Assembly: GCA_044350705.1 (NCBI GenBank)
Contig: JBILHA010000001.1
Span: 355,431-419,430, forward strand
Reading direction: 5' to 3'
Source: Candidatus Kapaibacterium sp.
Lineage (GTDB): Bacteria > Patescibacteriota > Patescibacteriia > UBA9934
DNA length: 64,000 nt
Shown: piece by piece, positions 1 through 51,762 of the stretch
How positions within the stretch are numbered: the stretch's first letter is position 1
Layout of the letters: each line of letters starts with the position of its first letter
Translations under genes and position numbers: made by a program
Notes under the pieces: model-generated
What the model saw: the letters and a program-made list of their open reading frames with translations, nothing else
Databases searched by the model: none
Told to the model about the DNA's origin: nothing

Positions 1-1250
1 GCGGCTCATTGATGAGTAGTTTTACCTTTCTATCAAGCAAATCGAGGATCGTTGAATTTTCGTTCAGATTTTCAATCGTATCCCAAAGTAATTTAACTAA
101 AAGGATGTCCTTTGTTTCCGCTAATAATTTTTGATTTTTGGCAGTCAATTTTGTCAGTAATGTCTTTTTGCTCGTCTCATTTTTACCGGAAAAATATTTA
201 TTAATATCATCTTTTGTGAGGTCGTGGATTTTATATTCGGTAATATCCTTGAAATATGTTTTTACTTTTACTTTATTGAGACTCCCAGAGCGGCAAGAAA
301 GTATAATTTTTTTGGTATTATCGTCTTTTTCTAGTTCGTACAAATAGGATAAAACATGGTCGGCTTTTTCGGCACTAAGCTCATCTAATCCGTCCATCAA
401 ATAAATAAACCCCAGTTTTTCATTCCTAACTTTGTAATCATTTTGTCTGTTCCGAATAAGGTTTTCTATAGTATCAAAAGTGCAGTTTTTTAAGTTGATT
501 AACATCGGAACGGCTTTGTTTTTCTGTAAGACTTTTTTAATATCGACCAAACTATTCTTATCTAAACCGGAAAATACTTGAAATAATTTGTGTATGGAAA
601 TGCTTTTACCAGAACCAGGATGGCCTGAAAGTAGAAAGTCTTTTTGTTTTGCCTGCAAAATCTTTTTTGTTATGTCTTCAAGTTTTTCTGTTTTTGAGTT
701 AATAAAAGGAAGGTCAATATATTCAGATGACTGCAAAAAAGTTAAAATTCTTGGATCTGAGCAAGATTTTATAAAGCCAAGTTCATCGCTAAAGTCAAAA
801 TAAAGTTGCGCCAAATCAAGATTTGCGGGTTGGTTCAGCGTCGCTCTGAATTTACTATCAACAAACCATTCAATTTTTATTTTCCCCGCCACTTTTTCAA
901 TATCATCCTTATATTTTGGTTGTTCGCTACCAAAAGATTGATGAGTGAAAATTATAATTCGGTTGAGTTTTTTATAATTTTGCCTCGCTTTTTCTACTGA
1001 TTTCTTAATTTGTTCAATGGAACTAGCTTCTGAAATTTTATTATCAAAAAACTTTGCTTGAAACCCCACATATTCATCTTTTTCATGATCAAAAATCGGA
1101 TATGTCTCAAGTCCAACTTGATTATAATCAACCCGTATCCCTTCTGATTTGGAATATCTGCGACAAAACAAAAAATATGCAAGTTCTTCAAAGCTTTTTC
1201 TATAATCCTCGTTCCTTACCTTGAACTTTTCCCAGCTTATTTTTTGCATA
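1..1250 (-). CDS. STAND NTPase (NACHT-like) with N-terminal Mrr-like PD-(D/E)xK nuclease domain; partial, C-terminus lies outside the window
   Basis: Absent from the ORF track because it has no stop in the window. Manual translation from ATG at 1250 reads MQKISWEKFKVRNEDYRKSFEELAYFLFCRRYSKSEGIRVDYNQVGLETYPIFDHEKDEYVGFQAKFF... with no stop down to position 1. Motifs: Walker A LLSGHPGSGKS, Walker B hhhhDGhDE as IYLMDGLDEL about 68 aa later, and NACHT hhhTSR-type motif IILSCRSGS about 30 aa after that. The N-terminal FEELAYFLF...GLETYPIFD...GFQAKFF resembles the Mrr catalytic core (D...QxK). Confidence 0.6.
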
Positions 1251-1282
1251 ATTACAGCGATTTTCTGGATCTCATTGAGTAC

Positions 1283-1321
1283 CTATACTTTACTATTGTT
1301 TACATGCTTAGTAAAGTATAG
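1283..1321. promoter_or_regulatory. Perfect 13-bp inverted repeat (ctatactttacta-N13-tagtaaagtatag) in the divergent intergenic region, ending 2 nt before the 1324 start codon; putative operator
   Basis: Read directly from the sequence. It lies between the divergent NACHT gene (start 1250) and the 1324 ORF. Confidence 0.4.
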
Positions 1322-1323
1322 CG

Positions 1324-2133
1324 ATGAATATAACTACACAGGCTGAACAAAAACTCATCGTCCAATTTCAAAAATGGTTTGAAACCGAAGAAATCGAGAC
1401 GAAGGTTTTGGAATTAAGGCAACAGATTGGGATACCATCCGAGGGTATTCCCATTACCGACGAAGATTTGAAGCAAATCGGTAGCTTGACCCTAACTCCA
1501 CAAAATCTACCATTCACAGAACGTAGAAAAGTAACCAAGTGTCTTCGTGAATGCTTCGCTGGCACGAGGGAATTTTTAGAAGCACGGCCGCTATTGAATA
1601 ACATGTATTTCAAGCATGTTCTACGGGCATATATCTTGTTTAATAAATTTCTGCTCGATGATGTACGCGCGGCGTTACCAATCGCTCTAAGACTCACGAA
1701 CTTGTGCGACATTAACGATGCGAAGGAAAATATTGAAGAGTATCTTGGTGCTGAAGAAGAGGAATGCAACGATCCAGAGATGCGAGAAATGTATATCGAT
1801 TCGCAAAGATCATTAACCGATCTTTTTCCAATTGCACTTAACATTCATCCAGAGTCAAGTCAACGAGATATTGTTGATTTCATCAAGAAAAACTGGCCAT
1901 ACATTAAAGCTCTACAAGAACGGCGAAAGAACGAAAACTCCAGAGTTCTTCACTCGCGAACCAAAATTAACGAATCAGTTAAAGAACGGAATAAATTGAT
2001 AAACACATGGCACAAAGATGGAATGCGCACTAAGGACATAAGGAAAAAGCTTGCAAGTCAACACCTATTCTTAGATGACGGTCACATTTTGAAGATAATT
2101 TCGATGGCGCGGAAGAAGCGTGAAGGGAAGTGA
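1324..2133 (+). CDS. hypothetical protein (island cargo), predicted mostly helical, no recognisable catalytic motif
   Basis: 269-aa ORF with AT-rich codon usage matching the island. Divergent from the NACHT gene. The antisense ORF 1368-1844 is considered spurious. Confidence 0.5.
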   Translation: MNITTQAEQKLIVQFQKWFETEEIETKVLELRQQIGIPSEGIPITDEDLKQIGSLTLTPQNLPFTERRKVTKCLRECFAGTREFLEARPLLNNMYFKHVLRAYILFNKFLLDDVRAALPIALRLTNLCDINDAKENIEEYLGAEEEECNDPEMREMYIDSQRSLTDLFPIALNIHPESSQRDIVDFIKKNWPYIKALQERRKNENSRVLHSRTKINESVKERNKLINTWHKDGMRTKDIRKKLASQHLFLDDGHILKIISMARKKREGK

Positions 2134-2264
2134 GGTGCAGATAGATTCTGAGCGTCACTTTTTTCTTAGATAAACCATTGTTAACCGGAATAAGCTGAGT
2201 GCAAATGCACTTGGCTTTTATGCTAGAGGATCAAAACTTAAAACCAATCGAAGAGGAGGCGTCA

Positions 2265-2357
2265 ATGCCAGAACTTCCCGAGATAGAAAATCTCGTCGGG
2301 TTTTTTGATCTTCTCATTACAGTCGACAGGCGACTTAACCCTGAACGATATGATTGA
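2265..2357 (+). CDS. 30-aa leader ORF (MPELPEIENLVGFFDLLITVDRRLNPERYD) with strong SD; its stop overlaps the ATG of the downstream gene (ATGATTGA), suggesting translational coupling
   Basis: gaggagg at 2252-2258, five nucleotides, then ATG at 2265. The TGA at 2355-2357 overlaps the candidate ATG at 2350 of the Rep-like gene. Confidence 0.3.
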   Translation: MPELPEIENLVGFFDLLITVDRRLNPERYD

Positions 2358-3468
2358 TACCGTCTGTCTTTCTTTGCCATACAACAGCCTTGTACTTCTT
2401 GATGAAAACAATGAAGCCGTCCCGCAATGGGATCTACAATCTAAGACTGATAATTACTCAAAGTATGTTAGGAATCCTTCCAAGGCTGATAAGCGATCGG
2501 GGCTGTATTTTCCTCGTCTCACGATTTATCGACGTAGATTCGGTCAACAGCCGAGTGTTAAGATTGAGTTTTCTGTTCCAAAGTTAATTTTTAACAACAA
2601 CTTAGAAGAACTATCTGACAAGTACTTTGATCAAGTGATCGATATTTTACAGGAACGACTTCAAAAAATGGGCGTTCGTGTTTTTAAACAGGTTTTAGCC
2701 TCAGCTCCAATTTCAACAATACACTTTTCAAAAAACTTTTCTCTGAGTGATGGTTATACGGCGAGTTACGTTATTTCGGAGTTACAAAAAATCGATTTGA
2801 GAAAGAGTTTCGATTTTGCCAGAGCTAGGTATATCAACAATGGCCAAAGCATCTGTGCCCACACACGGTCACACGAGCTAGTAATCTACGACAAGATCGC
2901 TGATCTTGGCAAAACAAAGAAACGTGCAATAGACAAAGATCAAACAGCGATTCAACTTAGTCTCTTCGACTCCTTGAAATCAAAATATGAATTGGTAGAG
3001 GTTCTCCGTGTTGAAGTGCGTTTATGCAACAAACAGAAAATTAACAGCATCTTCAAGAAGCTGAATATTCCACAAGACCCCACATTTCAAGACGCATTCA
3101 GTAGCAAGGTAAGCAAGGCGGTCATCGATCAGTATTGGGAGTCTGTTGTTAAGGCGGGTCAGATTGCTCTATTCGCAATTGATAAGCCAGCGAAGGAGCT
3201 TTTACGAGAAATGTGCAGAGGGGATCCCAATTTAAAACCCAAGCAAGCGATCTACCAGGTCGGGTTAACGTTACTCGCCAAGGATGGTGACGGATTAACT
3301 GAGCTAAGAAGTATATTTGACGATCGGACAAACGACCGAAGCTGGTACCGAATCAAAAATGATTTCAACCAAATATCCGCCAACATCACTTCGCAACAGA
3401 TCCGCAGCTGGGTAAATCAAATAGAGAAACAGATCAGAACTTATTCACCCATAAAAGTAATAAAATAA
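2305..3468 (+). CDS. hypothetical protein, possibly a Rep_trans-like rolling-circle replication initiator or relaxase (weak, by context); likely true start is ATG 2350
   Basis: 387-aa ORF; the track start is TTG at 2305. It sits immediately upstream of the small ORF, the excisionase and the serine recombinase. No motif could be verified by eye. Confidence 0.45.
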   Translation: MIFSLQSTGDLTLNDMIDTVCLSLPYNSLVLLDENNEAVPQWDLQSKTDNYSKYVRNPSKADKRSGLYFPRLTIYRRRFGQQPSVKIEFSVPKLIFNNNLEELSDKYFDQVIDILQERLQKMGVRVFKQVLASAPISTIHFSKNFSLSDGYTASYVISELQKIDLRKSFDFARARYINNGQSICAHTRSHELVIYDKIADLGKTKKRAIDKDQTAIQLSLFDSLKSKYELVEVLRVEVRLCNKQKINSIFKKLNIPQDPTFQDAFSSKVSKAVIDQYWESVVKAGQIALFAIDKPAKELLREMCRGDPNLKPKQAIYQVGLTLLAKDGDGLTELRSIFDDRTNDRSWYRIKNDFNQISANITSQQIRSWVNQIEKQIRTYSPIKVIK

Positions 3469-3469
3469 T

Positions 3470-3733
3470 ATGGACTGGTTATACATAATTTGGACAGAAA
3501 CATTTCAGCAATTCGCATCGGATAATCTTGGAAGAGAATTGACTGATATTGAGTTAAATCGACTTAGAGTGGCGTTTATTGATAACGACGACGCACAATG
3601 GCAAGTGGCAGATATGATGTATAGCGCTGGAATAGATGCAATGAACAACGCAAGAGGACGATGGAATTTGGTTGATGAAGGTTTCAAGAATGGAAAGTCG
3701 TTGTTTGGTAATTTGATATGTAAAGAAAAGTAA
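3470..3733 (+). CDS. hypothetical small protein (island)
   Basis: 87-aa ORF tightly packed between the Rep-like gene and the excisionase gene. Confidence 0.4.
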   Translation: MDWLYIIWTETFQQFASDNLGRELTDIELNRLRVAFIDNDDAQWQVADMMYSAGIDAMNNARGRWNLVDEGFKNGKSLFGNLICKEK

Positions 3734-3736
3734 AGT

Positions 3737-3931
3737 ATGATGAGTGTAGATATGAGCGATCAACAAGGAAAGTTTTACAAGGCCGAAGAACTTGCAGAGA
3801 TGTTGCAGGTAAATATTATGACGATTTACCGCTACATTAAGTCTGGCAAACTTCAAGCATACAAAATTGGCAAGGAATACAGGATTGATAAAAAGACGTT
3901 TGATCAGTTTTTAAAAAGCGTAAGAACATAG
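3737..3931 (+). CDS. excisionase/Xis-like HTH_17 (MerR-superfamily) DNA-binding protein
   Basis: The sequence EELAEMLQVNIMTIYRYIKSGKLQAYKIGKEYRI matches the HTH_17 excisionase-type motif. It lies immediately upstream of the recombinase. Confidence 0.6.
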   Translation: MMSVDMSDQQGKFYKAEELAEMLQVNIMTIYRYIKSGKLQAYKIGKEYRIDKKTFDQFLKSVRT

Positions 3932-3933
3932 AT

Positions 3934-5502
3934 ATGAAGGCAGTTATTCTTGCACGAGTGTCCACCGAAGAACAAAAGGATGCTGGTAATTCACTTCCAG
4001 CACAGATTCAACGCATTGAATCCTACTGCAGGCGTCAGGGGTTTGAAGTCGTTGAAACGTTCAGCTTCGATGAGAGTGCCTACAAAACTAAGCGTGACGA
4101 ATTCGATAAGATCATTGAATTCCTAAAACAAACGGACGAGAAAATCGTCGTTTGTTTCGATAAGGTCGATCGACTATCACGCAACGTCTTTGACAAGCGA
4201 GTATCCGAACTGTACGAAAAGGCTGTCTCAGATGAGATTGAACTTCACTTCGTGTCCGATGGACAAGTGATCAATAGCCAGATGTCAGCTGTTGAGAAGT
4301 TTCAATTTGGAATGAGCTTGGGATTGGCAAAGTATTACTCAGACGCTATCAGCGACAATGTGCGGCGAGCGTTCGAACAGAAGCGACGTAAAGGCGAAGT
4401 GACTGGTCGATGCGTTCTTGGATATATTAATATTGACGACTTTGAAGGAAACAAATCACTAAAGCCTGATCAGAAGCGTGCGCATCTTATTGTAAAAATC
4501 TTTGAGCTATATTCGACTGGCCTATACTCGATAAAAACCATTCAACAGAAAATCACTCAGCTTGGTTTGTTGAGTCGTGCTGGAAAAGAGTTGACGAAAA
4601 GTACTATAGAACGAATTTTGAATGAGTCGTTTTACTACGGCATGTCTTACTCTCAGAAATATAACGCCTATTATCCGCACAAGTACGAAACGCTGATCAG
4701 TAAGGCTCTCTTCGATAAGTGCCAGCACGTAAAGCTTAAGCGTAAAAAAGCCCCTAGTAAAAACATCGACAAGGATTTTATCCTTGCGGGCTTACTGACT
4801 TGCGAGCATTGCGGATGCACGATCTCGCCCGAGTTCAAACGTAAACCAAGCGGTAAGACCTACAAACTGTATAGCTGCACGAACTCTAAAGGAATCTGTA
4901 AACGTCGTTACGTCAATGAGGATGATCTGCTTAAGCCGATCTATGGCATTTTCGATCTCTTCGAGCAGATTACCGACGAAATTCAGAACCGCCTCATAGA
5001 CGAACTGCGCAAGACCTCTGAAGCTGAGCTTGCATTCCACAAATCTCAGATCGCTCGCATCCAAATGGAGCATGGCAAGCTGACGGATAGGAAGAGCCGA
5101 TTGCTCGACGCCTTCCTCGATCAGAGTATTACTAAGCCAGATTATGACAAAAAGTTGCAAGAGATCATGGACCGCATCCAAACACTTGCCATGGAAATCG
5201 AAGAACATTCTCGAGCAGACCATGATTACAAAACGACGGTAGCCACGGTACTTTCCGTGGCTCGTCGTGCCAATGAAATCTTTGAAGGTGCTGAATTGCA
5301 CGAGAAACGTGAATTCATCAATTTCCTCGTTCAGAACCCGAAATTAAAGGATAGGGAATTGGTCTTCGAGCTGAAACATCCAATGAATACGGTACTAGAA
5401 TTGGCTCACTACTCATCCCAAAAACAAAAAGCGACCAGTATTTCTACTGATCGACCTTCTTGGCTCCGGGGCTGGGGCTCGAACCCAGGACCAATTGGTT
5501 AA
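3934..5502 (+). CDS. large serine recombinase (resolvase catalytic domain, recombinase domain and C-terminal zinc ribbon)
   Basis: The N-terminal MKAVILARVSTEEQ carries the catalytic Ser in the conserved ARVST context. The zinc ribbon reads CEHCGC...YSCTNSKGIC. Total length is 522 aa. The 3' end overlaps tRNA-Asn. Confidence 0.85.
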   Translation: MKAVILARVSTEEQKDAGNSLPAQIQRIESYCRRQGFEVVETFSFDESAYKTKRDEFDKIIEFLKQTDEKIVVCFDKVDRLSRNVFDKRVSELYEKAVSDEIELHFVSDGQVINSQMSAVEKFQFGMSLGLAKYYSDAISDNVRRAFEQKRRKGEVTGRCVLGYINIDDFEGNKSLKPDQKRAHLIVKIFELYSTGLYSIKTIQQKITQLGLLSRAGKELTKSTIERILNESFYYGMSYSQKYNAYYPHKYETLISKALFDKCQHVKLKRKKAPSKNIDKDFILAGLLTCEHCGCTISPEFKRKPSGKTYKLYSCTNSKGICKRRYVNEDDLLKPIYGIFDLFEQITDEIQNRLIDELRKTSEAELAFHKSQIARIQMEHGKLTDRKSRLLDAFLDQSITKPDYDKKLQEIMDRIQTLAMEIEEHSRADHDYKTTVATVLSVARRANEIFEGAELHEKREFINFLVQNPKLKDRELVFELKHPMNTVLELAHYSSQKQKATSISTDRPSWLRGWGSNPGPIG

Positions 5503-5535
5503 CAGCCAACTGCTCTACCACTGAGCTACCCCGGA
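5461..5535 (-). tRNA. tRNA-Asn (anticodon GTT), CCA encoded
   Basis: Reverse complement folds as a canonical cloverleaf: acceptor UCCGGGG/CCCCGGA, D arm GCUC-AGUGGUA-GAGC, anticodon stem GUUGG/CCAAU with loop CUGUUAA, T arm CUGGG-UUCGAGC-CCCAG, discriminator G, then CCA. Confidence 0.9.
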
Positions 5536-5971
5536 ATAGAAAGTTTTGTAACGGGACATAGGATAACAAATGCTCCTTTCTCGTGCAAGGTGAAGATGGG
5601 AAGAAAATATTTCTCTGCGTCGCTTTGCGATGTGATCGCCTATGGTTTGAGGATGTTTGAGGCAGAAACAAAAAAACAAGCCAGTAAAGGTTTGCTTTTT
5701 TGGGGAGCGGTTTGCTTACTTTGCGTTTGCAGTAGCTTCCAATTTGCGCATGCGGATTGCCTTTGCCTTGCGGCGTTTTGCAAATCCGTCTTCACGCTTG
5801 ATGGCAAAAGCGGCATTTTGCGCTTTGCGGGAAAGTTTATGGCGGGATGGCATAAGAGGTAAAAACAATGCAAAGATACTACTTTATTCACCAACTTTGG
5901 TCAAATCTTTCCAAGAGTTTATGGGGAAAAGTGCTTGACGGAATGTCATTTCTTCGCCAAAACAGGGACAT

Positions 5972-7468
5972 ATGCATATTGCCGTTTCAAAAGGCCGTCT
6001 CTCGCAAAGCGGTGCTGAGGTGTTGGTTGTTCCGGTTCTTTCGGGAAAGAGCTTGGCGGGAATTCCGGTATTAGGAAATGATGCGCTGCGACGCGCGGAA
6101 CGTCTGGCAAAGGCGCAGGATTTTACGGGAAAGGCAGGTGAGGTTCTTTCCCTTCCGGCACCTGAAGGGCATGGCGCTGATGTACTGTTGTGTATTGGGG
6201 TGGGAGAGAAGCGTTCCGCATCTTTTTTGGATGCAGTCCGAGATATGGGCGGGAATGCGGTGCAGGTTGCAAAAAAGATGGGCCTTCGTACGATTGCTGC
6301 TGATTTCTCTGCGAAGGAAATGATGCATGCGGATGCGGTGGAAGCTTTTGTGACCGGTATTCTTTTAACGAATTATGCGTTTGATGCGTATAAAAAACAA
6401 AATGGCGCTAAGCGTGTTGCGGAGGTAGATATCCTGCTCCCGGATAGTCGCATGACGCTTGTGCTCCGCAAAACCATCGAGCGTGTCCAGGGGGTGATGG
6501 CGGGCGTGAATATCGCGCGCGATCTCGTTAATATCCCCGCGCATGACATGACACCTGAGCGTTTGGCGGAAGCTGCACAAGAAATTGCAAAAGAATCCGG
6601 AGGAACGATTAAAGTAAAGGTCCTTGAACGTGCGGAGTGTCAGAAGCTGGGTATGGGCGCCTATCTTGCGGTTGCGCAGGGTGCTGATCGTGATCCAAAG
6701 TTCATCACGCTTTCTTATACTTCTCCGCGTCCTGCAAAAAAGAATGTTGCGGTTATTGGAAAGGGAGTGACGTTTGATTCGGGGGGATTATCCATTAAAC
6801 CTGCGGATAGCATGATGACCATGAAGTGTGACATGGCAGGTGCCGCAGCGGTGATCGGATTGTTTGCGGTACTCGGCAAACTCCGTCCTCGGGTAAACAT
6901 TCGTGGGTATATCGCGGCAACGGAAAATATGCCTTCCGGAAACGCGGTTCGCCCAGGGGATGTGGTCCGCTCCATGTCAGGCAAAACGATTGAAGTGCTC
7001 AATACGGATGCAGAAGGTCGTCTCACGCTTGCGGATGCGCTTACCTATGCGTTGCGCGAAAAGCCGGACATGATGGTTGATCTTGCTACTCTTACCGGTG
7101 CTTGTATGGTAGGACTTGGAGAAGAGATCGCAGGTCTCATGTCAAATGATCGCGGTCTTGCGAAGGATGTACTCAAGAGCGCGAAAGATGCGGGAGAGAA
7201 GTTGTGGGAAATGCCGCTTGAACCGCGCTACCAGCAACTGATTCAAAGTGATATTGCTGATTTGCGGAATATTGCAACCAGCAGATATGGAGGATCGCTG
7301 ACCGCTGGACTCTTTTTGCAAGAATTTGTGGAGGAGACGCCATGGGCGCATCTTGATATCGCAGGTCCTGCGTTTGCGGAGCGACCCATGGGCGTATGTC
7401 TTCAGAAGGGCGCTACGGGATATGGAGTACGGACGCTTTGGAAGTGGGTTGAGGGGATGGGGAAGTAG
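5972..7468 (+). CDS. pepA: leucyl aminopeptidase (M17 family)
   Basis: M17 signature NTDAEGRLTLADAL plus the conserved VGKGVTFDSGG region. Confidence 0.85.
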   Translation: MHIAVSKGRLSQSGAEVLVVPVLSGKSLAGIPVLGNDALRRAERLAKAQDFTGKAGEVLSLPAPEGHGADVLLCIGVGEKRSASFLDAVRDMGGNAVQVAKKMGLRTIAADFSAKEMMHADAVEAFVTGILLTNYAFDAYKKQNGAKRVAEVDILLPDSRMTLVLRKTIERVQGVMAGVNIARDLVNIPAHDMTPERLAEAAQEIAKESGGTIKVKVLERAECQKLGMGAYLAVAQGADRDPKFITLSYTSPRPAKKNVAVIGKGVTFDSGGLSIKPADSMMTMKCDMAGAAAVIGLFAVLGKLRPRVNIRGYIAATENMPSGNAVRPGDVVRSMSGKTIEVLNTDAEGRLTLADALTYALREKPDMMVDLATLTGACMVGLGEEIAGLMSNDRGLAKDVLKSAKDAGEKLWEMPLEPRYQQLIQSDIADLRNIATSRYGGSLTAGLFLQEFVEETPWAHLDIAGPAFAERPMGVCLQKGATGYGVRTLWKWVEGMGK

Positions 7469-7529
7469 TTGGGTTGAAGAAAAGAGACTTTCGACGTATG
7501 CTGTCTTTAGTCTTTTTTCTTATCTTGTT

Positions 7530-8765
7530 ATGCATCCTGTCTTCAAAAATACGTACGTTTTTACGGCTATTGGTGCCATTGTCCTTGGCGCACTTCTTTA
7601 TGGAGGGAAGCAGTATCTTGCTGCGCGTGAGCTCGCACGTCTTGAGGAAAATCGTATCGAAGGTGGATGGTATGAGACGCCGGTTTCTTTTGAGGGAGCA
7701 TGGCACCTCGTTCCTCCGGGTGAGATTTATTCTTCTGGTATTGAGGAGGGGGATATTCCTGCGCTCACACAGCCAAATCTCATGAGCGTTGATGAAGCGG
7801 ACGACGTTATTGCTGATGACCTTGGAGGTATCGCGGTAGAAATCCAGGGCAAGCATCGCTTTTATCCGGTGCAGATCATGAATTGGCACGAAGTCGTGCA
7901 CGATACCATTGGTGGGGAATCCGTTTTGGTGTACTACGGACCGCTTACCGGAGCTGCGGCAGTGTATCGGCTTCCAGAAAATATGCGTTTTGTGGTGAGT
8001 GGTCGTGGGTATAACAACGATATCCTTTTGAAACAGGAAGGTACTGAGACCCTTTGGTCCGGCATTTTGGGTATGCCTGTTGTAAGCAGCCGTGAAGCTG
8101 ACCTTGATGCATCTCTTGAGCGCCTTCCATCTTCTTTCATGACTTGGAAGGAATGGCGTGATGCACATCCCGATGGAACGGTTCTTTCTACGGATACCGG
8201 GCATGCGCGCGACTATACACGTCATCCTTACGGAAATTATGAAAATTCCGTTGGCGTATATTTCCCGGTAAATCGTACGACCTATTCCGTTCGTGCAAAA
8301 GAACCTGCATATCTTGTGCAAAGCGAAGGTGCATTTGGTGTTTTTGTTAAAACTGCAACGATACTTGATGAAACTCCGTCGGTTCTTCTTGGAGATGCCT
8401 GTATTGTTGGCTTGCATGAAGCATCTGGCTCGCAAATTTTCTTGTATTCTTGTGAAGTGAATGGCCGTACGCTTACGTTCCGTCGTGTTGAACCGGGTGT
8501 ATTTACCGATGAAGAAACGGGTTCTCGTTGGAATGCATCGGGCCGCGCAGTATCCGGTGAACTTACGGGTGCGCAACTTACCGTTGTTCCTTCAGTACGC
8601 TTGTATAGTTTTATTGCCGATGCATTGTTCCCTCAAGCGGTAATTGCGGGTGAGGAATTTGTACTTCCGCAAACACTTTCTGAAGATGAAATTTCCTCCG
8701 CTGATAATGCTCCGGTTATAGAAGGAGAGAATGTTGATGGTGCAACGGTTGAAGTTGTTCAGTAG
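7530..8765 (+). CDS. DUF3179 domain-containing membrane-anchored protein
   Basis: N-terminal TM helix MHPVFKNTYVFTAIGAIVLGALLY. The core HEVVHDTIGGESVLVYYGPLTGAAAVY...FVVSGRGYNNDILL...TGHARDYTRHPYGNY fits the DUF3179 pattern. The track ORF starts earlier at 7326 and overlaps the pepA end. Confidence 0.6.
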   Translation: MHPVFKNTYVFTAIGAIVLGALLYGGKQYLAARELARLEENRIEGGWYETPVSFEGAWHLVPPGEIYSSGIEEGDIPALTQPNLMSVDEADDVIADDLGGIAVEIQGKHRFYPVQIMNWHEVVHDTIGGESVLVYYGPLTGAAAVYRLPENMRFVVSGRGYNNDILLKQEGTETLWSGILGMPVVSSREADLDASLERLPSSFMTWKEWRDAHPDGTVLSTDTGHARDYTRHPYGNYENSVGVYFPVNRTTYSVRAKEPAYLVQSEGAFGVFVKTATILDETPSVLLGDACIVGLHEASGSQIFLYSCEVNGRTLTFRRVEPGVFTDEETGSRWNASGRAVSGELTGAQLTVVPSVRLYSFIADALFPQAVIAGEEFVLPQTLSEDEISSADNAPVIEGENVDGATVEVVQ

Positions 8766-8779
8766 CGCTTAAGAGCAGA

Positions 8780-9472
8780 ATGTATACCTGTATGCTCTAT
8801 ATCGTTGCTACTCCCATTGGAAATAGAAACGACATCACGGAGCGAGCGAAGCAAACGCTCGCTTCTGTTGATGTTGTGCTTTGTGAAGATACGCGTGTTA
8901 CGGCGAAGTTGTGTAGCATGCTTGAAATTCAGCCTACGCTTCATACCTTTCACGAACATACCGACGATCGCAAGCGTGGAGAGATTGTTGCGCAACTTGT
9001 TGCAGGAAAGAGCATGGCGCTTGTGAGCGATGCGGGTACGCCGGGGATTTCTGATCCGGGAGGCATGCTTGTTGCTGATGCGGTAAAAGCGGGAGTTGAA
9101 GTTGTTCCGATTCCGGGAGTATCGGCGGTTGCTACGGCGCTTTCAGTTTGCGGTTTTCCTACAGCGCGTTTTACGTTTGTAGGATTTCCTCCCCAAAAGA
9201 AAGGACGAGAAACATTTTTTAGAGAGCTTGGAGATATTGCGCATACGATCGTGCTGTATGAGTCTACGCATCGCATTGAGAAAACGATTGAAGCGCTTGG
9301 TGTGCTTGGTCGTCGGTTGTGTGTTTGTCGAGAGCTGACCAAGATGCATGAGACGATTTATCGAGGTACTGCATCTGAAGTTCTTGCCGCGCTTGCAAAA
9401 ACAAGTACGAAGGGGGAGTTTGTGATTGTGGTCGCTCCTCGTGTTCGTGAAAGTATTGAAGTTGTTGAATAA
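8780..9472 (+). CDS. rsmI: 16S rRNA (cytidine1402-2'-O)-methyltransferase
   Basis: LYIVATPIGNRNDITERA...VDVVLCEDTRV matches the tetrapyrrole-methylase fold typical of RsmI. Confidence 0.8.
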   Translation: MYTCMLYIVATPIGNRNDITERAKQTLASVDVVLCEDTRVTAKLCSMLEIQPTLHTFHEHTDDRKRGEIVAQLVAGKSMALVSDAGTPGISDPGGMLVADAVKAGVEVVPIPGVSAVATALSVCGFPTARFTFVGFPPQKKGRETFFRELGDIAHTIVLYESTHRIEKTIEALGVLGRRLCVCRELTKMHETIYRGTASEVLAALAKTSTKGEFVIVVAPRVRESIEVVE

Positions 9473-9480
9473 AAAAAATC

Positions 9481-9519
9481 CCCCACACGACGTCGCCGTT
9501 CGCGAACGTTCGTGTGGGG
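9481..9519. terminator. 10-bp perfect stem hairpin (ccccacacga...tcgtgtgggg) preceded by an A8 tract; rho-independent terminator for the minus-strand gene 9534-9944, possibly bidirectional
   Basis: Read directly from the sequence. Confidence 0.5.
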
Positions 9520-9533
9520 TACGTTGACCTAGA

Positions 9534-9944
9534 TTAGGCCTCGTCGTTTTTTCCCCCACGTCCTGCCGCGGGGGTGAGAGCGTCATCCGGGGGGAGGATG
9601 ACGAATGGGGCCACTGGCAAATTTACCGTCGGCAACATTCTCGACGGAAGTTTCTCGTATACGGCTTTCAGAGCTTTCGTGGCCTCTTCCTTATGTTTCC
9701 CCTCAGCGATCCGCCTTTCGATGAGTCCGAAAAGCGTCTCCATGTTCCCACCTCCCCAGAAGTAAGTGCTGATTGCACCTACAGCCTCAGTGATCTTTCC
9801 CTGTATGATGAGGTGACTGATCTCCTCAACGACCTGATCAATGTCGCTCGCCTCCGCCGCGGTGGGGGTGAGCACCATCATCACCGCGGGGGTGATGGGG
9901 GCGAGGGCGAGGACGATGCGGAGGAGGGCGGGGGCGATCTTCAT
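9534..9944 (-). CDS. small secreted protein (signal peptide MKIAPALLRIVLALAPITPAVMMVLTPTAAEA); function unknown
   Basis: SD GGGAGA lies 6 nt before ATG at 9944. The 5' half is GC-rich. The promoter is supplied by 48-bp repeat copy 1. Confidence 0.5.
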   Translation of the reverse strand: MKIAPALLRIVLALAPITPAVMMVLTPTAAEASDIDQVVEEISHLIIQGKITEAVGAISTYFWGGGNMETLFGLIERRIAEGKHKEEATKALKAVYEKLPSRMLPTVNLPVAPFVILPPDDALTPAAGRGGKNDEA

Positions 9945-9996
9945 GCTGTCTCCCATGTCGGGTTTTCGGCGGAAGTGCCGAAAAATGCGACCGGTA

Positions 9997-10044
9997 TTTA
10001 TACCATATTTTTAGCTTTTTTTTAAGTATTTGAAGAACGAGCTT
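9997..10044. repeat. 48-bp direct repeat copy 1 (tttataccatatttttagcttttttttaagtatttgaagaacgagctt); on the minus strand it forms a sigma70-like promoter (-35, 17-nt spacer, TATAAA)
   Basis: 47 of 48 positions identical with the copy at 10630-10677. It sits about 40 nt upstream of minus gene 9534-9944. Confidence 0.6.
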
Positions 10045-10140
10045 TATTAGATTCGTATATTTTGCTGAGTTCGTCAGTGAGGTCGGGATTGTTCACGTGG
10101 TGATGTGATCACGGTGGAGTTTAAGAAATAAAAACAGAAC

Positions 10141-10166
10141 GCCCTGCACTCGTGAAAGTGCAGGGC
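10141..10166. terminator. hairpin gccctgcac-tcgtgaaa-gtgcagggc flanked by an A-rich tract; terminator for minus gene 10182-10541
   Basis: Read directly from the sequence. Confidence 0.55.
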
Positions 10167-10181
10167 AAGCGGAAGGGGGGG

Positions 10182-10541
10182 TCAGTACGTGTGCGTGCCG
10201 ATGCACACGTACCTCCCATCATCGAACATTTCCGGTGGGTCTACGATCTCCCCGTAGGAAATGTAGACCTCCTCCTCCTTGTTGACGCAGAGCGTGGACG
10301 AGGCCCCCGGCGGGCACGTGGCCCAGAAGCTGGGCGGCTCCTCCTCTCCCCCGATGGGGACCATGAGGAAGTCCCCCTCCTTCCCCGGGAGGATGACCGT
10401 GGCGGTCTCCTCGCCCTCGTCGACCTCGACGCAGGCGAAGCTCCAACCGTCGGAGACCTCCTGCTCGAACGCCTCCACGCAGGAGACGGTGGCCTCGCTG
10501 CAGCCGGTGGTGAGGGAGAGGGCGAGGGTGGCGGTGCGCAT
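10182..10541 (-). CDS. small secreted/lipoprotein-like acidic protein with 6 Cys; function unknown; about 65% GC
   Basis: SD AGGAG lies 6 nt before the ATG. The N-terminus MRTATLALSLTTGCS is signal-peptide or lipobox-like. Codons are strongly GC3-biased, unlike neighbouring genes. Confidence 0.5.
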   Translation of the reverse strand: MRTATLALSLTTGCSEATVSCVEAFEQEVSDGWSFACVEVDEGEETATVILPGKEGDFLMVPIGGEEEPPSFWATCPPGASSTLCVNKEEEVYISYGEIVDPPEMFDDGRYVCIGTHTY

Positions 10542-10629
10542 GGTGAACTCCTGCCTTTGGGTAAGAAACCCGAGGCTTCCAACGAAATGTCACTTCTTTG
10601 ACGAAATTGCCATTGAACGTGACATGTTT

Positions 10630-10677
10630 TTATACCATATTTTTAGCTTTTTTTCAAGTATTTGAAGAACGAGCTTC
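10630..10677. repeat. 48-bp direct repeat copy 2; minus-strand TTGAAA-N17-TATAAA promoter upstream of gene 10182-10541, in the divergent region shared with metG
   Basis: See copy 1. Confidence 0.6.
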
Positions 10678-10735
10678 TTTCCAGTACGATTTCTTGCATC
10701 ATCTTGATTCCCGTTTTTTAGCACTTTTTCTTCCT

Positions 10736-12223
10736 ATGTCTCGTTTTATTACCGCTTCTATTCCTTATGTAAATTCCACACCGCATGTGGGATATGCACT
10801 TGAGCTCATTCAGGTCGATGCGCTTCTTCGGTATTACCGCACACGAGGCGAGGTAGTTCGCGGGCAATTTGGCAGTGATGATAATAGTTTGAAAAATGTG
10901 CGTGCGGCGAAAGAGGCAGGGGAGACGACCGAGGCGTTTGTTGCACGACATGCAGAAGAGTTTCGTAAGCTTTCCGATATTCTTCAGCTTGATGCATCGG
11001 TGCGTCACTTTATTCGAACGCGAGATGACGTGCACATGCGGGGTGCGCAGAAGCTTTGGAGCATGTTTCGACCTGAAGACATCGATAAGCGTTCGTACGA
11101 AGGGTTGTACTGCGTAGGTTGCGAGGCTTTTTATTCGCAAGAAGATCTTCTTGAAGGAAAGAATTGTCCTACGCACAAGAAGCCAGTTGAAGTTATTCAA
11201 GAAGAAAATTATTTCTTCAAACTTTCCAATTATCAATCTTTTTTTGAGGAGTTGCTTACACAGGGTGTTGCAACGTGGCAGGGAAAGGAGCATCGCATGA
11301 CGATTGTTCCTGAAGAGCGACGTAATGAAATGTTGGCGTTTGCCAAGAAGTTGGAAGACTTTAGCATTTCGCGTTCCGTGCAACGTGCAGAAAACTGGGG
11401 AGTTCCTGTTCCGGGCGATGAAAGTCAGGTGATGTATGTATGGGTTGATGCGCTTTCGAACTATATTACCGGCTTAGGTTTTGCTGATGACGCACAAGAA
11501 TTTGCAGAATTTTGGACGAACGCTGATGTACGAACGCATGTTATTGGAAAAGACATTGTGCGCTTCCATGCAATTTATTGGCCAGCCTTTTTGCTTTCTG
11601 CAGGTCTCCCACTTCCTACCGAGATTTTTGTGCATGGCTTTCTTACGGTTGAAGGGGAGAAGATGAGTAAGTCGTTGGGCAATGTGGTGCGCCCGCAGGA
11701 GATGATTGATGTGTACGGTGTTGATGCGACGCGATATTTGCTTCTTCGTGATCTTCCCTTGGTGGGAGATGGTGATATTTCAAAAGATCGACTTGAGGAG
11801 CGCTATAACGAACTTGCAAATGGATTGGGGAATTTGGTTGGACGTGTTGCCGCCATGGCGAATAAGTATTTTGACGGTGTGCTTGATGTGGTTGATGTGC
11901 ATTATGCTGGATTTGATGCCGCATTTGCTGATGTACTGCATGCCGCACTCACGTCTCGTGATTTCAAGCGATATCTTGAGATTGTGCAGGATTTGGTAGG
12001 CGTTGCGAATAAGAAGATTAATGATGAAGAGCCGTTCCGAACCGCAAAGACCGATCTTCTTGCATGTAAGAAAACACTTTCCGAAGTTGCGGCGATGATT
12101 CGTGCGATTGCTGAAGCATATGCGCCCGTCATGCCTTCAATGAGTGCAGAAATCCTTGCGCGGTATAATGGTGAAAAGATTATTCACGGAGAGCCGTTGT
12201 TTCCGAAGCGAGACGAAGCATGA
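10736..12223 (+). CDS. metG: methionyl-tRNA synthetase, compact form (496 aa) lacking the C-terminal tRNA-binding domain
   Basis: N-terminal MSRFITASIPYVNSTPHVGY is HIGH-like and a KMSKS motif is present. The track ORF starts upstream at 10598. Confidence 0.9.
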   Translation: MSRFITASIPYVNSTPHVGYALELIQVDALLRYYRTRGEVVRGQFGSDDNSLKNVRAAKEAGETTEAFVARHAEEFRKLSDILQLDASVRHFIRTRDDVHMRGAQKLWSMFRPEDIDKRSYEGLYCVGCEAFYSQEDLLEGKNCPTHKKPVEVIQEENYFFKLSNYQSFFEELLTQGVATWQGKEHRMTIVPEERRNEMLAFAKKLEDFSISRSVQRAENWGVPVPGDESQVMYVWVDALSNYITGLGFADDAQEFAEFWTNADVRTHVIGKDIVRFHAIYWPAFLLSAGLPLPTEIFVHGFLTVEGEKMSKSLGNVVRPQEMIDVYGVDATRYLLLRDLPLVGDGDISKDRLEERYNELANGLGNLVGRVAAMANKYFDGVLDVVDVHYAGFDAAFADVLHAALTSRDFKRYLEIVQDLVGVANKKINDEEPFRTAKTDLLACKKTLSEVAAMIRAIAEAYAPVMPSMSAEILARYNGEKIIHGEPLFPKRDEA

Positions 12224-50502: not shown

Positions 50503-51762
50503 TTATACCAGCCTATCCGTATGAGCTAGCGCATCAAACTTCGCGGTCATTGTGGGATTTCCCCGTGTGAGTTTCTTGATGGTTAAATCCTCCGCTTTGT
50601 TATTTGCAATACGAAGATTGTTTTCAGACGAAAGAAGGGCTTCTTTGGTTTTTTGCAGATGATCAATCGTTTTCTCTATTTCTTCAATCGCGGTTTTGAA
50701 TTTACGACTCGCAAGCTCGTAATTTCTTGCAAATCCTTCTTTGAAGTTTTGGATGTTTTCTTCAAAGTGCGTAATGTCGATATCTTGATTTCTCACCAGT
50801 GCGAGTTCTGCTTTGTACTTCAGACAATTCAAAGATGCATTCCGAAGAAGCGTGATGATCTGAATAAAAAACTGCGGTCGAATCACGTACATCTTTTCGT
50901 ACTTATACGACATATCCACGATGCCCGTGTTGTACAGTTCACTATCCGCCTCAAGGAGCGAGACGAGAACCGCATATTCGCACTTCTTCTCACTACGATC
51001 TTTATCAAGCTCGCGAAGAAAGTCTTCATTCTTTTTCTTTGTCGCCGTTTCATCACCTTCGTTTTTCATTTCAAACATGATGGAAATAATTTCATTCCCT
51101 AACTCATCAGTTTCTCGATAGATGTAGTCGCCCTTGCTGCCGGTCCGCGCGTCATTGTCCTTTTCAAAATAGGCCTTTTGAAATGCGGTCGCTCTCAATT
51201 TATTAAACTCAGTCTCACAGTGCTGTTCGAGCGTCTCGCCAATCATTTTTGTTGAGAGCTTTACTTTCATATCTTTCCGCAGTGCAATTTCTTCGTCTTT
51301 CATCCTGATGATGTCGTCTTTTGTTTTGAGCTCAGCAATAAATTTTTCCTTGAGTGCAGTTTCGAGCAGCTGTTTTTCAACATTTTTATTCTGCAGCTCA
51401 TGCACAAGGCTGTCACGTTCTTTCTGCAGGTGCTGTATCGCCTCGGTAACTGCGAGTTTCTTCTCGATCTCTATAGATTCAATCTTTGCCTGAAGCTTGC
51501 TCATCTCAGCAGCTTTCTCGACTTTCATCCTGGCCATCTCTGCATCTTTCTGAAACAGGTCCTGCTGCAACGCACTTTTTACCTGCACCTCGACGAGCTT
51601 TACTGCGCTCTCTTTCTCTTTTTCAAGGAGCGCAAGCCGCTCATGCAATTCTCGATCGAATTCCTGGTTACGCACCTGCTTCAGAATATCCGCGAATCCG
51701 GTTTCATCAATGGTGAACGCTTTTTCACAGTGGGGGCATTTAATCTCATGCATACTTTTCAC
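50503..51762 (-). CDS. DUF2130 family protein (N-terminal CPHC zinc ribbon, long coiled coil, C-terminal conserved domain)
   Basis: [35 protein letters not shown] is the characteristic DUF2130 start. GC is lower (about 43%) than the neighbours. Confidence 0.5.

Follow-up and report, generated by a model that had tools for sequence, protein, structure and literature searches.

Described here is an insertion in a patescibacterial chromosome, the right-hand portion of which lies at the start of a 64,000-nt window of DNA (assembly GCA_044350705.1, contig JBILHA010000001.1, positions 355,431 to 419,430 of the forward strand). We are highly confident of its boundaries: the insertion measures 12,700 bp, lies at the 3' terminus of a tRNA-Asn gene, and has its right 5.47 kb in positions 1-5468 of the window. 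The explanation that best accounts for the data is that of an integrative element of plasmid-like character within a chromosome of Candidatus Uhrbacteria-like (Patescibacteria) type, and to this explanation as a whole we assign a probability of roughly 0.85. The apparent role of the element is the carriage of anti-phage defence genes. Its recombinase is a large serine recombinase (LSR), the reading frame of which crosses the attachment site of the element (attP), and integration would thus rewrite the C-terminus of the enzyme. A genomic island located at a tRNA gene is of an ordinary kind. The novelty lies in a family of LSRs directed to tRNA ends, in the rewriting of the frame, and in the putative terminator that is built into the element.

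Boundaries of the element and the empty site

A sequence-only reading of this DNA had described the first 5.5 kb as markedly AT-rich, and the composition is in keeping with that description. The GC content is 0.392 for positions 1-5460 versus 0.496 for positions 5536-64000, and the mean for 500-bp windows is 0.386 in the element (n=10) versus 0.495 in the host (SD 0.036, n=116; Mann-Whitney p = 1.5e-7). Likewise, the tetranucleotide distance between element and host is 0.422, as compared with 0.152 +/- 0.024 for equal-sized host chunks. The GC minimum of 0.31-0.36 is found only within the gene for a STAND protein; the element backbone has values of 0.38-0.47.

An exact-protein look-up identified three assemblies that carry the same DNA, and in all of them the element is integrated. 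One of their contigs, L001, is identical to window positions 1-12,000 over the 12,000 nt compared and reaches 8,677 nt further to the left. The clue to the left end was an alternative tail peptide of LSR homologues, WLRLLDGFRTVNW..., which is encoded at L001 1438. As can be seen at this position, a stranded tail-coding segment (L001 1438-1524, plus strand) with no integrase body before it is open for 29 codons (WLRLLDGFRTVNWQIITQQLSQIELNVYH) and ends in a stop codon at 1525-1527. It begins with a second copy of the core sequence TGGCTCCG (L001 1438-1445), which marks attL. The element therefore extends 7,239 nt to the left of window position 1, its size from core to core is 12,700 bp (L001 1438 to 14138), and the window contains only its right 5,468 nt. 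The suggestion of the sequence-only reading that the element continues past position 1 was correct, with the left end 7.2 kb outside the window.

The right copy of the core, attR, lies at 5461-5468 and is the complement of nt 69-76 (CGGAGCCA) of a host tRNA-Asn(GTT) encoded at 5461-5535 on the minus strand (ARAGORN; Rfam 71.2 bits). This tRNA gene is the integration target and supplies the right arm of attB. Given that the right core copy constitutes the last 8 nt of the tRNA, the gene stays intact. The attL junction reads ...cacgccttctca TGGCTCCG attgctggacgggttcagaacgg... and the attR junction ...gatcgaccttct TGGCTCCG gggctggggctcgaaccc..., from which attP is reconstructed as ...GATCGACCTTCT TGGCTCCG ATTGCTGGACGGGTTCAGAACGG... 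and attB as ...CACACGCCTTCTCA TGGCTCCG GGGCTGGGGCTCGAACCC...

A direct repeat of the 26-nt tRNA 3' segment had also been expected, but only the 8-bp core is repeated: a second copy of the longer segment is absent from L001, whether in a pattern search allowing up to 3 mismatches, in a repeat search, or with blastn at word size 7. Because serine integrases leave only a short core, to take the lack of a long repeat as an argument against insertion would give a false negative. A 23-nt match of 78% at L001 1108-1130 was considered as the left end and was dropped once attL had been located at 1438.

The comparison with related genomes proposed by the sequence-only reading provides the empty site. 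Three relatives (L005, L006, and L007), obtained from a pepA scan of species-representative genomes that also showed the host to be Candidatus Uhrbacteria-like, and displaying pepA identities of 85%, 72%, and 65%, share the synteny tRNA-Asn, pepA, DUF3179, TP_methylase, and none of them contains genes of the element. In L007 the site is uninterrupted. The 144 nt directly 3' of its tRNA-Asn (L007 9428-9570) are 89.6% identical to L001 1302-1445, and in L001 this counterpart sits 12.7 kb away from the tRNA, at attL. The empty site in L005 is weaker, with 82% identity over 51 nt. Taken together, the two cores and the empty site uphold the earlier proposal that an integrative element occupies the tRNA-Asn 3' end. 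Its phrase "classic genomic-island signature" holds with respect to the preserved tRNA and the empty site; it does not hold for the enzyme, which is a serine rather than a tyrosine integrase with a frame that crosses the attachment site.

An 80-nt stretch of the host flank to the left of attL (L001 1177-1256) is what remains, at 76% identity, of another serine recombinase gene's 3' end. That recombinase, 440 aa in length, is intact in L007 (7606-8928), where it lies beside a type I restriction R subunit (3526-6480). It would seem that defence islands have repeatedly landed in the region 3' of tRNA-Asn.

The order of features across the element is attL, cargo (p1088, p167, and an Avs4-like STAND protein), p269, a leader ORF, Rep372, p87, an HTH_17 protein, LSR, and attR/tRNA. 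The genes from p269 to LSR are closely packed on the plus strand. Every gene and the tRNA placed in this part of the window by the sequence-only reading were found at their coordinates, and its succession of HTH_17 gene, Rep-like gene, coupled leader ORF, and serine recombinase was upheld.

The integrase and its attachment sites

The LSR gene (3934-5502, plus strand) encodes a protein of 522 aa. Profile searches confirmed the recombinase assignment through matches to Resolvase (PF00239, 6.5e-23), Recombinase (PF07508, 1e-13), Zn_ribbon_recom (PF13408, 1.6e-6), and the integrase family phrog_95 (9e-75). Among 37 homologues, Arg 8, Val 9, Ser 10, and the Asp 79-Arg 80-Leu-Ser 82-Arg 83 motif are invariant, as are the zinc-ribbon residues Cys 290, Cys 293, Cys 295, Cys 315, and Cys 322. 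An AlphaFold2 (AF2) model of the homologue P0109 contains a coiled coil formed by two long antiparallel helices (residues 352-399 and 405-448). Three features that characterize LSRs were accordingly found, namely the catalytic domain, the C-terminal domains with the coiled coil, and a short core with an arm motif at shifted spacing. The best NCBIfam matches, XisF (4e-26) and CcrB (1e-25), are far under their cut-offs (92 versus 375 bits and 90 versus 900 bits, respectively), and the sole PDB sequence match is the catalytic domain of the TP901-1 integrase (1.4e-6). Since every named family scores far below its cut-off, the enzyme belongs to a separate clade.

Twelve attL/attR pairs were available for comparison. 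Exact cores of 6-10 bp are present in eight of them, a single mismatch reduces the identity to 1 nt in three, and the remaining locus, L117, is a tandem duplication. In the eleven integrated loci other than the one in the window, the shared core is T(G/T)GCTCC(G/C), with an exact 6-10-bp repeat in seven. Three loci (L129, L150, and L152) carry TTGCTCCC at attL and TGGCTCCG at attR, and the only dinucleotides common to both junctions lie inside GCTCC. For this reason the crossover is placed at tRNA nt 70-74.

The arms flanking the core are equally regular. A T-loop-like motif of the P' arm, TTCAGAAC, has its start at +22 relative to the core in all 22 arms compared, and the tRNA arm motif (T/C/A)TCGAAC begins at +18 in 37 of 37. 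In the serine-integrase model put forward by Rutherford, Van Duyne and colleagues (2013), the zinc-ribbon-domain motif of attP is reportedly about 5 bp more distal than that of attB. The outward shift of 4-5 nt observed here fits this attP/attB model for serine integrases. In the proposed reaction, LSR would recombine attP with the tRNA's 3' end, and attP would consist of the stop-proximal codons of LSR as the P arm, followed by the core and the P' arm. We infer from the sequences that LSR is the catalyst of this attP x attB recombination.

Proposed exchange of the integrase C-terminus

In the window, the last 42 nt of the LSR gene (5461-5502) run antisense to the tRNA-Asn 3' end. Residues 510-512 (WLR) derive from the att core, and residues 513-522 (GWGSNPGPIG) from the antisense of the tRNA acceptor and T arm. 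The integrated form of the protein is thus composed of 509 residues, WLR, and GWGSNPGPIG, for a total of 522 aa, and the form reconstructed from attP has the same 509 residues and WLR followed by LLDGFRTVNWQIITQQLSQIELNVYH, for a total of 538 aa. Upon integration, a C-terminal tail of 26 residues (approximately 36 in most relatives) would be exchanged for about ten tRNA-antisense codons. The segment coding for the tail would be left stranded at attL, and excision would restore it. Each element would accordingly produce two integrase isoforms, one from the free circle and the other from the integrated copy, and, as a hypothesis, this change could act as a built-in directionality or stability switch.

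Twenty-four copies of the tail, from attP and from stranded attL segments, have the consensus WLP(L/I)VD(K/E)FRT.NW..IK.EL.FSGIL.LFP..SLQN followed by a stop codon. For codons 13-30 the entropy is 1.47 at position 3 versus 1.12 and 0.97 at positions 1 and 2, which points to selection at the protein level. The frame stays open to the conserved stop in attP and stranded attL copies alike. The conserved tail, the third-position entropy, and the open stranded frames suggest that the tail is functional and that excision is frequent enough for selection to act. That the tail swap has a functional role is nevertheless a proposal that we hold at somewhat less than even odds.

A family of related elements

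A search with LSR provided 1,666 homologues at E <= 1e-20, and those with names belong to Patescibacteria. Most end in ...WLRG(W/R/Q)(D/G)SNPRP and a minority in WL(R/P)x(L/V)(D/N)xFRTxNW... The former ending is the antisense of a tRNA acceptor and T arm, for TGG is the antisense of CCA and GAT TCG AAC that of the T-loop. Among the best 120 homologues, the tail is of the T-loop-antisense type in 65 and of the attP type in 14-16, and another 36 end no more than 4 residues after WL. The sequence-only reading could match the element to no family; the profile and homologue searches now place it in one with more than 1,600 LSR homologues.

A metagenome scan with the LSR profile yielded 80 loci. The LSR frame ends within a minus-strand tRNA in 47 of these, comprising 41 for Asn (including L086), three for Gln, two for His, and one for Trp. 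An attP-type tail is present in 15 of the 80, and several more have tRNA-like tails with no ARAGORN call. Eleven further attL/attR pairs were delineated, in which the stranded tail lies 5.1-11.2 kb upstream of the LSR end, and these distances correspond to the element sizes. One contig, L107 (8,981 nt with a 123-nt terminal overlap), represents a circle of 8,858 bp and is the only such contig among the 80. It encodes a homologue of p269, a leader ORF, Rep372, HTH_17, and an LSR, the last in the attP form, as well as a C5-methylase paired with an HpaII endonuclease, and its att site is internal to the contig. Locus L117 contains two tandem copies with an internal attP-like junction and LSR genes that are identical over at least 1,350 nt. 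The broader proposal, that small integrative rolling-circle episomes with self-remodelling serine integrases are dedicated defence carriers throughout the Patescibacteria, is a tentative one for which we would not claim even odds.

Several loci depart from this pattern. Beside its tRNA-Asn, L006 has no integrase but retains two segments like a stranded tail or attL, together with what is left of an LSR 3' end (2862-2900, 7536-7576, and 8288-8331); these appear to be decayed tandem remnants of the same family, and L152 similarly contains four stranded tails. Integrase tails resembling tRNA antisense (for example ...DSNLRPIDYTY...) occur in L094, L098, L106, L119, L126, L143, and L162, where ARAGORN calls no tRNA. 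One report (PMC13011429) describes intron-containing tRNA-Asn genes in Patescibacteria, and the tRNAs at these seven LSR ends could be genes of that type. The LSRs at L146 11495 and L159 11489 lie in long contigs (31.7 and 58 kb) with no tRNA nearby and have a different long tail (..DFR.(F/I)D(Y/W)..EY..P...L..K.LL); L159 does not have the Rep and HTH_17 backbone.

Searches of IMG/VR with LSR alone or with the P'-arm DNA pattern returned nothing, and scans with the LSR and Rep profiles gave only fragmentary or distant relatives. Two of these contigs, L167 and L168, encode a distant Rep with 33-40% identity, and in L168 an LSR with 28% identity follows directly after it. The ORFs around them, taken over the two contigs jointly, include matches to tape-measure, T4SS coupling-protein-like, tyrosine-integrase, and MT-A70 families. 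No match was found among PLSDB plasmids or INPHARED phages (50,697 phage records) by blastn of the backbone or tblastn of Rep372. Within the literature searched, coverage of which was incomplete such that an earlier description elsewhere is possible, neither the family nor an LSR with a frame spanning attP is described.

Backbone proteins and probable replication

Rep372 (2350-3468, plus strand; 372 aa) resembles rolling-circle replication initiators of the Rep_trans/G2P type. The sequence-only reading was right in calling a Rep-like gene, and the fold supports that call; the start given in the ORF list, TTG 2305, is replaced here by ATG 2350, as all homologues begin with MIDTVCL. A fold test showed the Rep_trans fold to be present, with sequence identities of 8-10% to Rep_trans/G2P proteins and, at the C-terminus, roughly 140 residues that form an additional helical domain. 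At the gathering threshold, Pfam gives no match for the protein of the window; among 35 homologues, two match Phage_CRI and one matches Rep_trans. His 171, His 175, Tyr 180, Asp 181, and Lys 182 are invariant and define a candidate active-site motif, H171..H175-E-L-V-I-Y180-D-K. Following excision, the protein would probably replicate the circle by a rolling-circle route, or nick it for transfer. A plasmid-like rolling-circle lifestyle is the alternative that we moderately favour. Matches of Rep372 to Dermatopontin and Ski7, and of p269 to poxvirus A20, were treated as noise.

The leader ORF (2205-2357, plus strand; 50 aa) overlaps the start of the Rep gene by 8 nt (ATGATTGA), an arrangement that makes translational coupling of the two plausible. 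It is conserved, with 55% identity in L003, a further copy in L167, and a 55-aa ORF at the same position in L107. Following Rep372 is p87 (3470-3733, plus strand), a small backbone protein of 87 aa, and relatives have an ORF of 84-110 aa after Rep.

The HTH_17/excisionase-family DNA-binding protein (3737-3931, plus strand) matches Pfam HTH_17 (3.5e-14), TIGR01764 (4.2e-13), and excisionase families of PHROGs. Its gene adjoins Rep and LSR in the relatives as well, and the protein is likely, by analogy with those families, to be a directionality factor for excision or recombination, or a regulator.

The first backbone gene encodes p269 (1324-2133, plus strand; 269 aa), homologues of which are located at the same position in other members of the family. 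With identities of 26-52%, they lie upstream of Rep in L094, L107, L115, L129, L132, and L146. A homologue search with p269 returned nine close proteins, all unannotated. Searches of Pfam, PHROGs, PADLOC, NCBIfam, and PDB sequences with p269, p87, p167, and p1088 gave no credible match.

Cargo of the element and its relatives

The cargo occupies the interval between attL and p269. The part of it within the window is the gene for the Avs4-like STAND protein (2-1249, minus strand), of which the window contains the N-terminal 416 codons; the gene extends past the left end, and its full length is 1412 aa (L001 5688-9926). Residues 1-225 match Avs4 of PADLOC (5e-34) and of NCBIfam (3.9e-33; 113.9 bits versus a cut-off of 1500). 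The protein contains an Mrr-like nuclease N-domain and a weak Pfam NACHT match (2.7e-4), and the resemblance to Avs4 is limited to the N-terminal region of approximately 230 residues. The NACHT/Mrr-like STAND cargo of the sequence-only reading is thereby retained.

To the left of the window lie p1088 (L001 1554-4820), which has no match in Pfam, NCBIfam, PADLOC, or PDB, and p167 (L001 5051-5554), which has none in Pfam, NCBIfam, or PADLOC. By eye, p1088 has at its N-terminus (GGGDGKVD...AFAFSTQK) a motif like that of PD-(D/E)xK/Mrr-type nucleases, and it may be an uncharacterised defence protein.

The survey of cargo in the relatives took in 47 non-backbone ORFs of eleven other members and, in addition, the cargo genes of the circular L107. 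Type III restriction-modification systems are represented by four to five methylases and four Res subunits, and type II systems by C5 methylases, CfrBI, HpaII, and Eco57I/TaqI-type proteins. Other matches are to Shedu SduA_C, AbiTii, AbiU2, SocA_Panacea, DUF4325, and HNH proteins. Indeed, all of the non-backbone ORFs with any match belong to defence or toxin-antitoxin families.

A probable terminator antisense to the integrase gene

Directly after the CCA end of the tRNA, on its strand and within the 3' coding region of LSR (5420-5461, minus strand), a terminator scan located a hairpin with a GAAA loop followed by CTTTTTGTTTTT. Its minimum free energy is -21.2 kcal/mol. This hairpin and T-run would replace the host sequence displaced from downstream of the tRNA, and the element-supplied hairpin probably terminates transcription of the tRNA gene. 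Covariation among nine relatives with a long linker accords with such a structure: 16 pairs are predicted, 11 of which show compensatory changes, and the hairpin cells are paired in 92.4% of cases versus 73.3% after shuffling (0 of 500 shuffles reach the observed value) and 30-59% in slid controls. The linker peptide of LSR (...QKQKATSISTDRPS) appears to have been shaped by the antisense RNA structure. In the short-linker subclade, the conserved GAAGCTAT...ATAGCTTTTTT lies about 40 nt from CCA and its covariation is not significant. The terminator assignment is therefore restricted to the long-linker subclade, which includes the element in the window.

Comparison with known systems

LSR shares with phage integrases of the A118/TP901-1/Bxb1 type, with SCCmec CcrAB/CcrC, and with Anabaena XisF the order of resolvase domain, recombinase domain, zinc ribbon, and coiled coil, and it shares with serine integrases in general Ser 10, the DRLSR motif, a short att identity, and an arm motif at shifted spacing. 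Staphylococcal cassette chromosome (SCC) elements insert at the 3' end of rlmH without destroying that gene, and insertion of the present element is likewise non-destructive. Unlike the named LSR families, the enzyme targets the last nucleotides of a tRNA gene, and its frame crosses attP. Almost all serine integrases of streptococcal integrative mobilizable elements (IMEs) insert within genes and disrupt them (PMC5357655); relative to these, it is unusual for an LSR to target tRNA 3' ends and leave the gene undisrupted.

Targeting of tRNA genes is typical of tyrosine integrases and is performed here by a serine integrase. Like the tRNA islands of tyrosine integrases (Islander-type, P4-like, and AICE/pSAM2-like), the element has a tRNA 3' target, a regenerated tRNA, an outward-facing tRNA-proximal integrase gene, and accessory cargo. 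Those islands leave repeats of tens of bp. In contrast to them, the element has a serine-type enzyme as its sole recombinase, no displaced tRNA fragment, a repeat of only 8 bp, and no arm-type architecture. With regard to size, PMC2440964 describes pSAM2-type AICEs as small integrative plasmids of 10-17 kb in tRNA genes.

Compared with pT181 RepC/RepD, Geobacillus RepSTK1, G2P, and MobT, Rep372 is set apart by its identity of 8-10% and its extra C-terminal domain. The Ralstonia inovirus phiRSM reportedly unites a small resolvase-type serine recombinase, a gene-II-type Rep, and a target at the 3' end of tRNA-Ser, and is the nearest precedent known to us; the element differs from it in its 522-aa LSR and the lack of virion genes. 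A reference to phiRSM is listed in PMC7192596 (ref. 22). Attachment sites within coding sequences are familiar from tyrosine integrases: in Sulfolobus SSV1, attP lies inside int, and in mycobacteriophages with integration-dependent immunity it lies inside the repressor gene. As in those cases, attP within a coding sequence means that integration changes the protein made, but here it is a serine integrase that swaps its own C-terminus for antisense tRNA codons.

The genomes of Patescibacteria (Candidate Phyla Radiation) are tiny, and characterisation of their mobile elements has been poor. Integrases, recombinases, and tRNA targets go unmentioned in a study of patescibacterial genomic islands (PMC12455944). 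The element described here has precise limits; attL, attR, and an empty site are available, attB and attP have been reconstructed, and it belongs to a family of more than 1,600 integrases with predictable targets at the 3' ends of tRNA-Asn, -Gln, -His, and -Trp. Such elements are a possible route for the movement of defence genes within Patescibacteria. They also offer natural serine integrases with known att sites, which may serve as tools where genetic systems are lacking, and a testable case of a serine integrase whose C-terminus depends on the integration state.

Alternative explanations

Several observations weigh against an integrative plasmid-like element with a self-remodelling integrase. 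Only integrated copies of the 12.7-kb element were seen, with neither its excised circle nor its own empty site recovered, and an exact pepA look-up for a same-species strain without it returned only occupied copies. No virion or conjugation genes were found in the element or in the 12 relatives examined. The assignment of Rep372 to replication or relaxase functions draws on fold similarity and weak profile matches, and the role of the HTH_17 protein is assumed from family names. Tails of the attP type are also found inside long contigs (L146 and L159) and in the tandem array of L117, and such a tail alone is therefore no proof of an episome. Codons 6-10 of the tail (GAC RAG TTC AGA ACT) are conserved, third positions included, which points to a DNA-level constraint on att. 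Finally, in an AF2 model of an attP-form homologue, the tail is predicted as three short helices with a pLDDT of about 63-71, and the pTM of the whole model is 0.39, values that do not support docking of the tail onto the rest of the integrase.

The last two of these observations are what would be expected if the insertion is real and the tRNA overlap and tail swap are functionless, with the frame simply running to the first stop and the tail kept as the integrase-bound P' arm. The tRNA-derived tails, which range from 1 to about 30 residues in length, imply further that no specific tRNA-coded peptide is needed. A typical half-site of a serine integrase is about 25 bp, however, and conservation of the tail (FRT.NW..IK.EL.FSGIL.LFP..SLQN and the stop) continues for approximately 75-100 nt beyond the core. 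Moreover, third codon positions are the most variable in that region, and the frame remains open. We consider a functionless tail to be less likely than not. Somewhat less probable still is an IME in which Rep372 would be a MobT-type relaxase acting in transfer rather than in plasmid replication. Rep_trans (PF02486/MobT) is the commonest relaxase superfamily of streptococcal IMEs (PMC5357655), the element has its own integration/excision module in the form of LSR and HTH_17, and an ORF neighbouring a distantly related Rep has a match to T4SS coupling-protein families. Yet no coupling protein, oriT, or T4SS gene was found in the element or in the 12 relatives examined, a conjugative helper is not evident, and the circular 8.86-kb contig, which was assembled separately, fits a persisting episome.

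The fact that the 12.7-kb element is seen only in integrated form, together with the decayed family remnants in L006 and L152 at the same tRNA, could also indicate chromosomal DNA, ancestral or decayed, that has lost its mobility. This is improbable, for no backbone ORF is disrupted, the core is perfect in both copies, the frame of the stranded tail has 29 open codons, the composition is strongly foreign, and the site is empty in relatives. Least probable of all is a prophage or phage satellite with a serine integrase, such as an inovirus-like element. The Rep372 family does weakly match Phage_CRI (G2P), the best PHROG match of LSR is the "integrase" family phrog_95, and distant Rep and LSR relatives occur in the IMG/VR contigs L167 and L168, one neighbouring ORF of which matches a tape-measure protein. 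In addition, a gene-II-type Rep, a serine recombinase, and a tRNA target are said to occur together in filamentous phages of the phiRSM type. The element and the 12 delineated relatives gave no match, however, to any capsid, terminase, portal, tail, Zot/pI, or lysis family, and backbone and cargo fill these elements of 5-13 kb. The viral databases likewise gave only the fragmentary or distant IMG/VR relatives and no tblastn match in the phage records. An integrative plasmid-like element thus remains our preferred explanation of the insertion.

Other features of the window

The 75-nt intergenic region between the divergent Avs4-like and p269 genes contains a perfect 13-bp inverted repeat, CTATACTTTACTA at 1283-1295 and TAGTAAAGTATAG at 1309-1321, which is possibly an operator or a replication origin. 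In the host portion of the window, six further 500-bp windows (23036, 28036, 36536, 44536, and the two within 50536-51535) have a GC content below 0.44 in surroundings of approximately 0.50.

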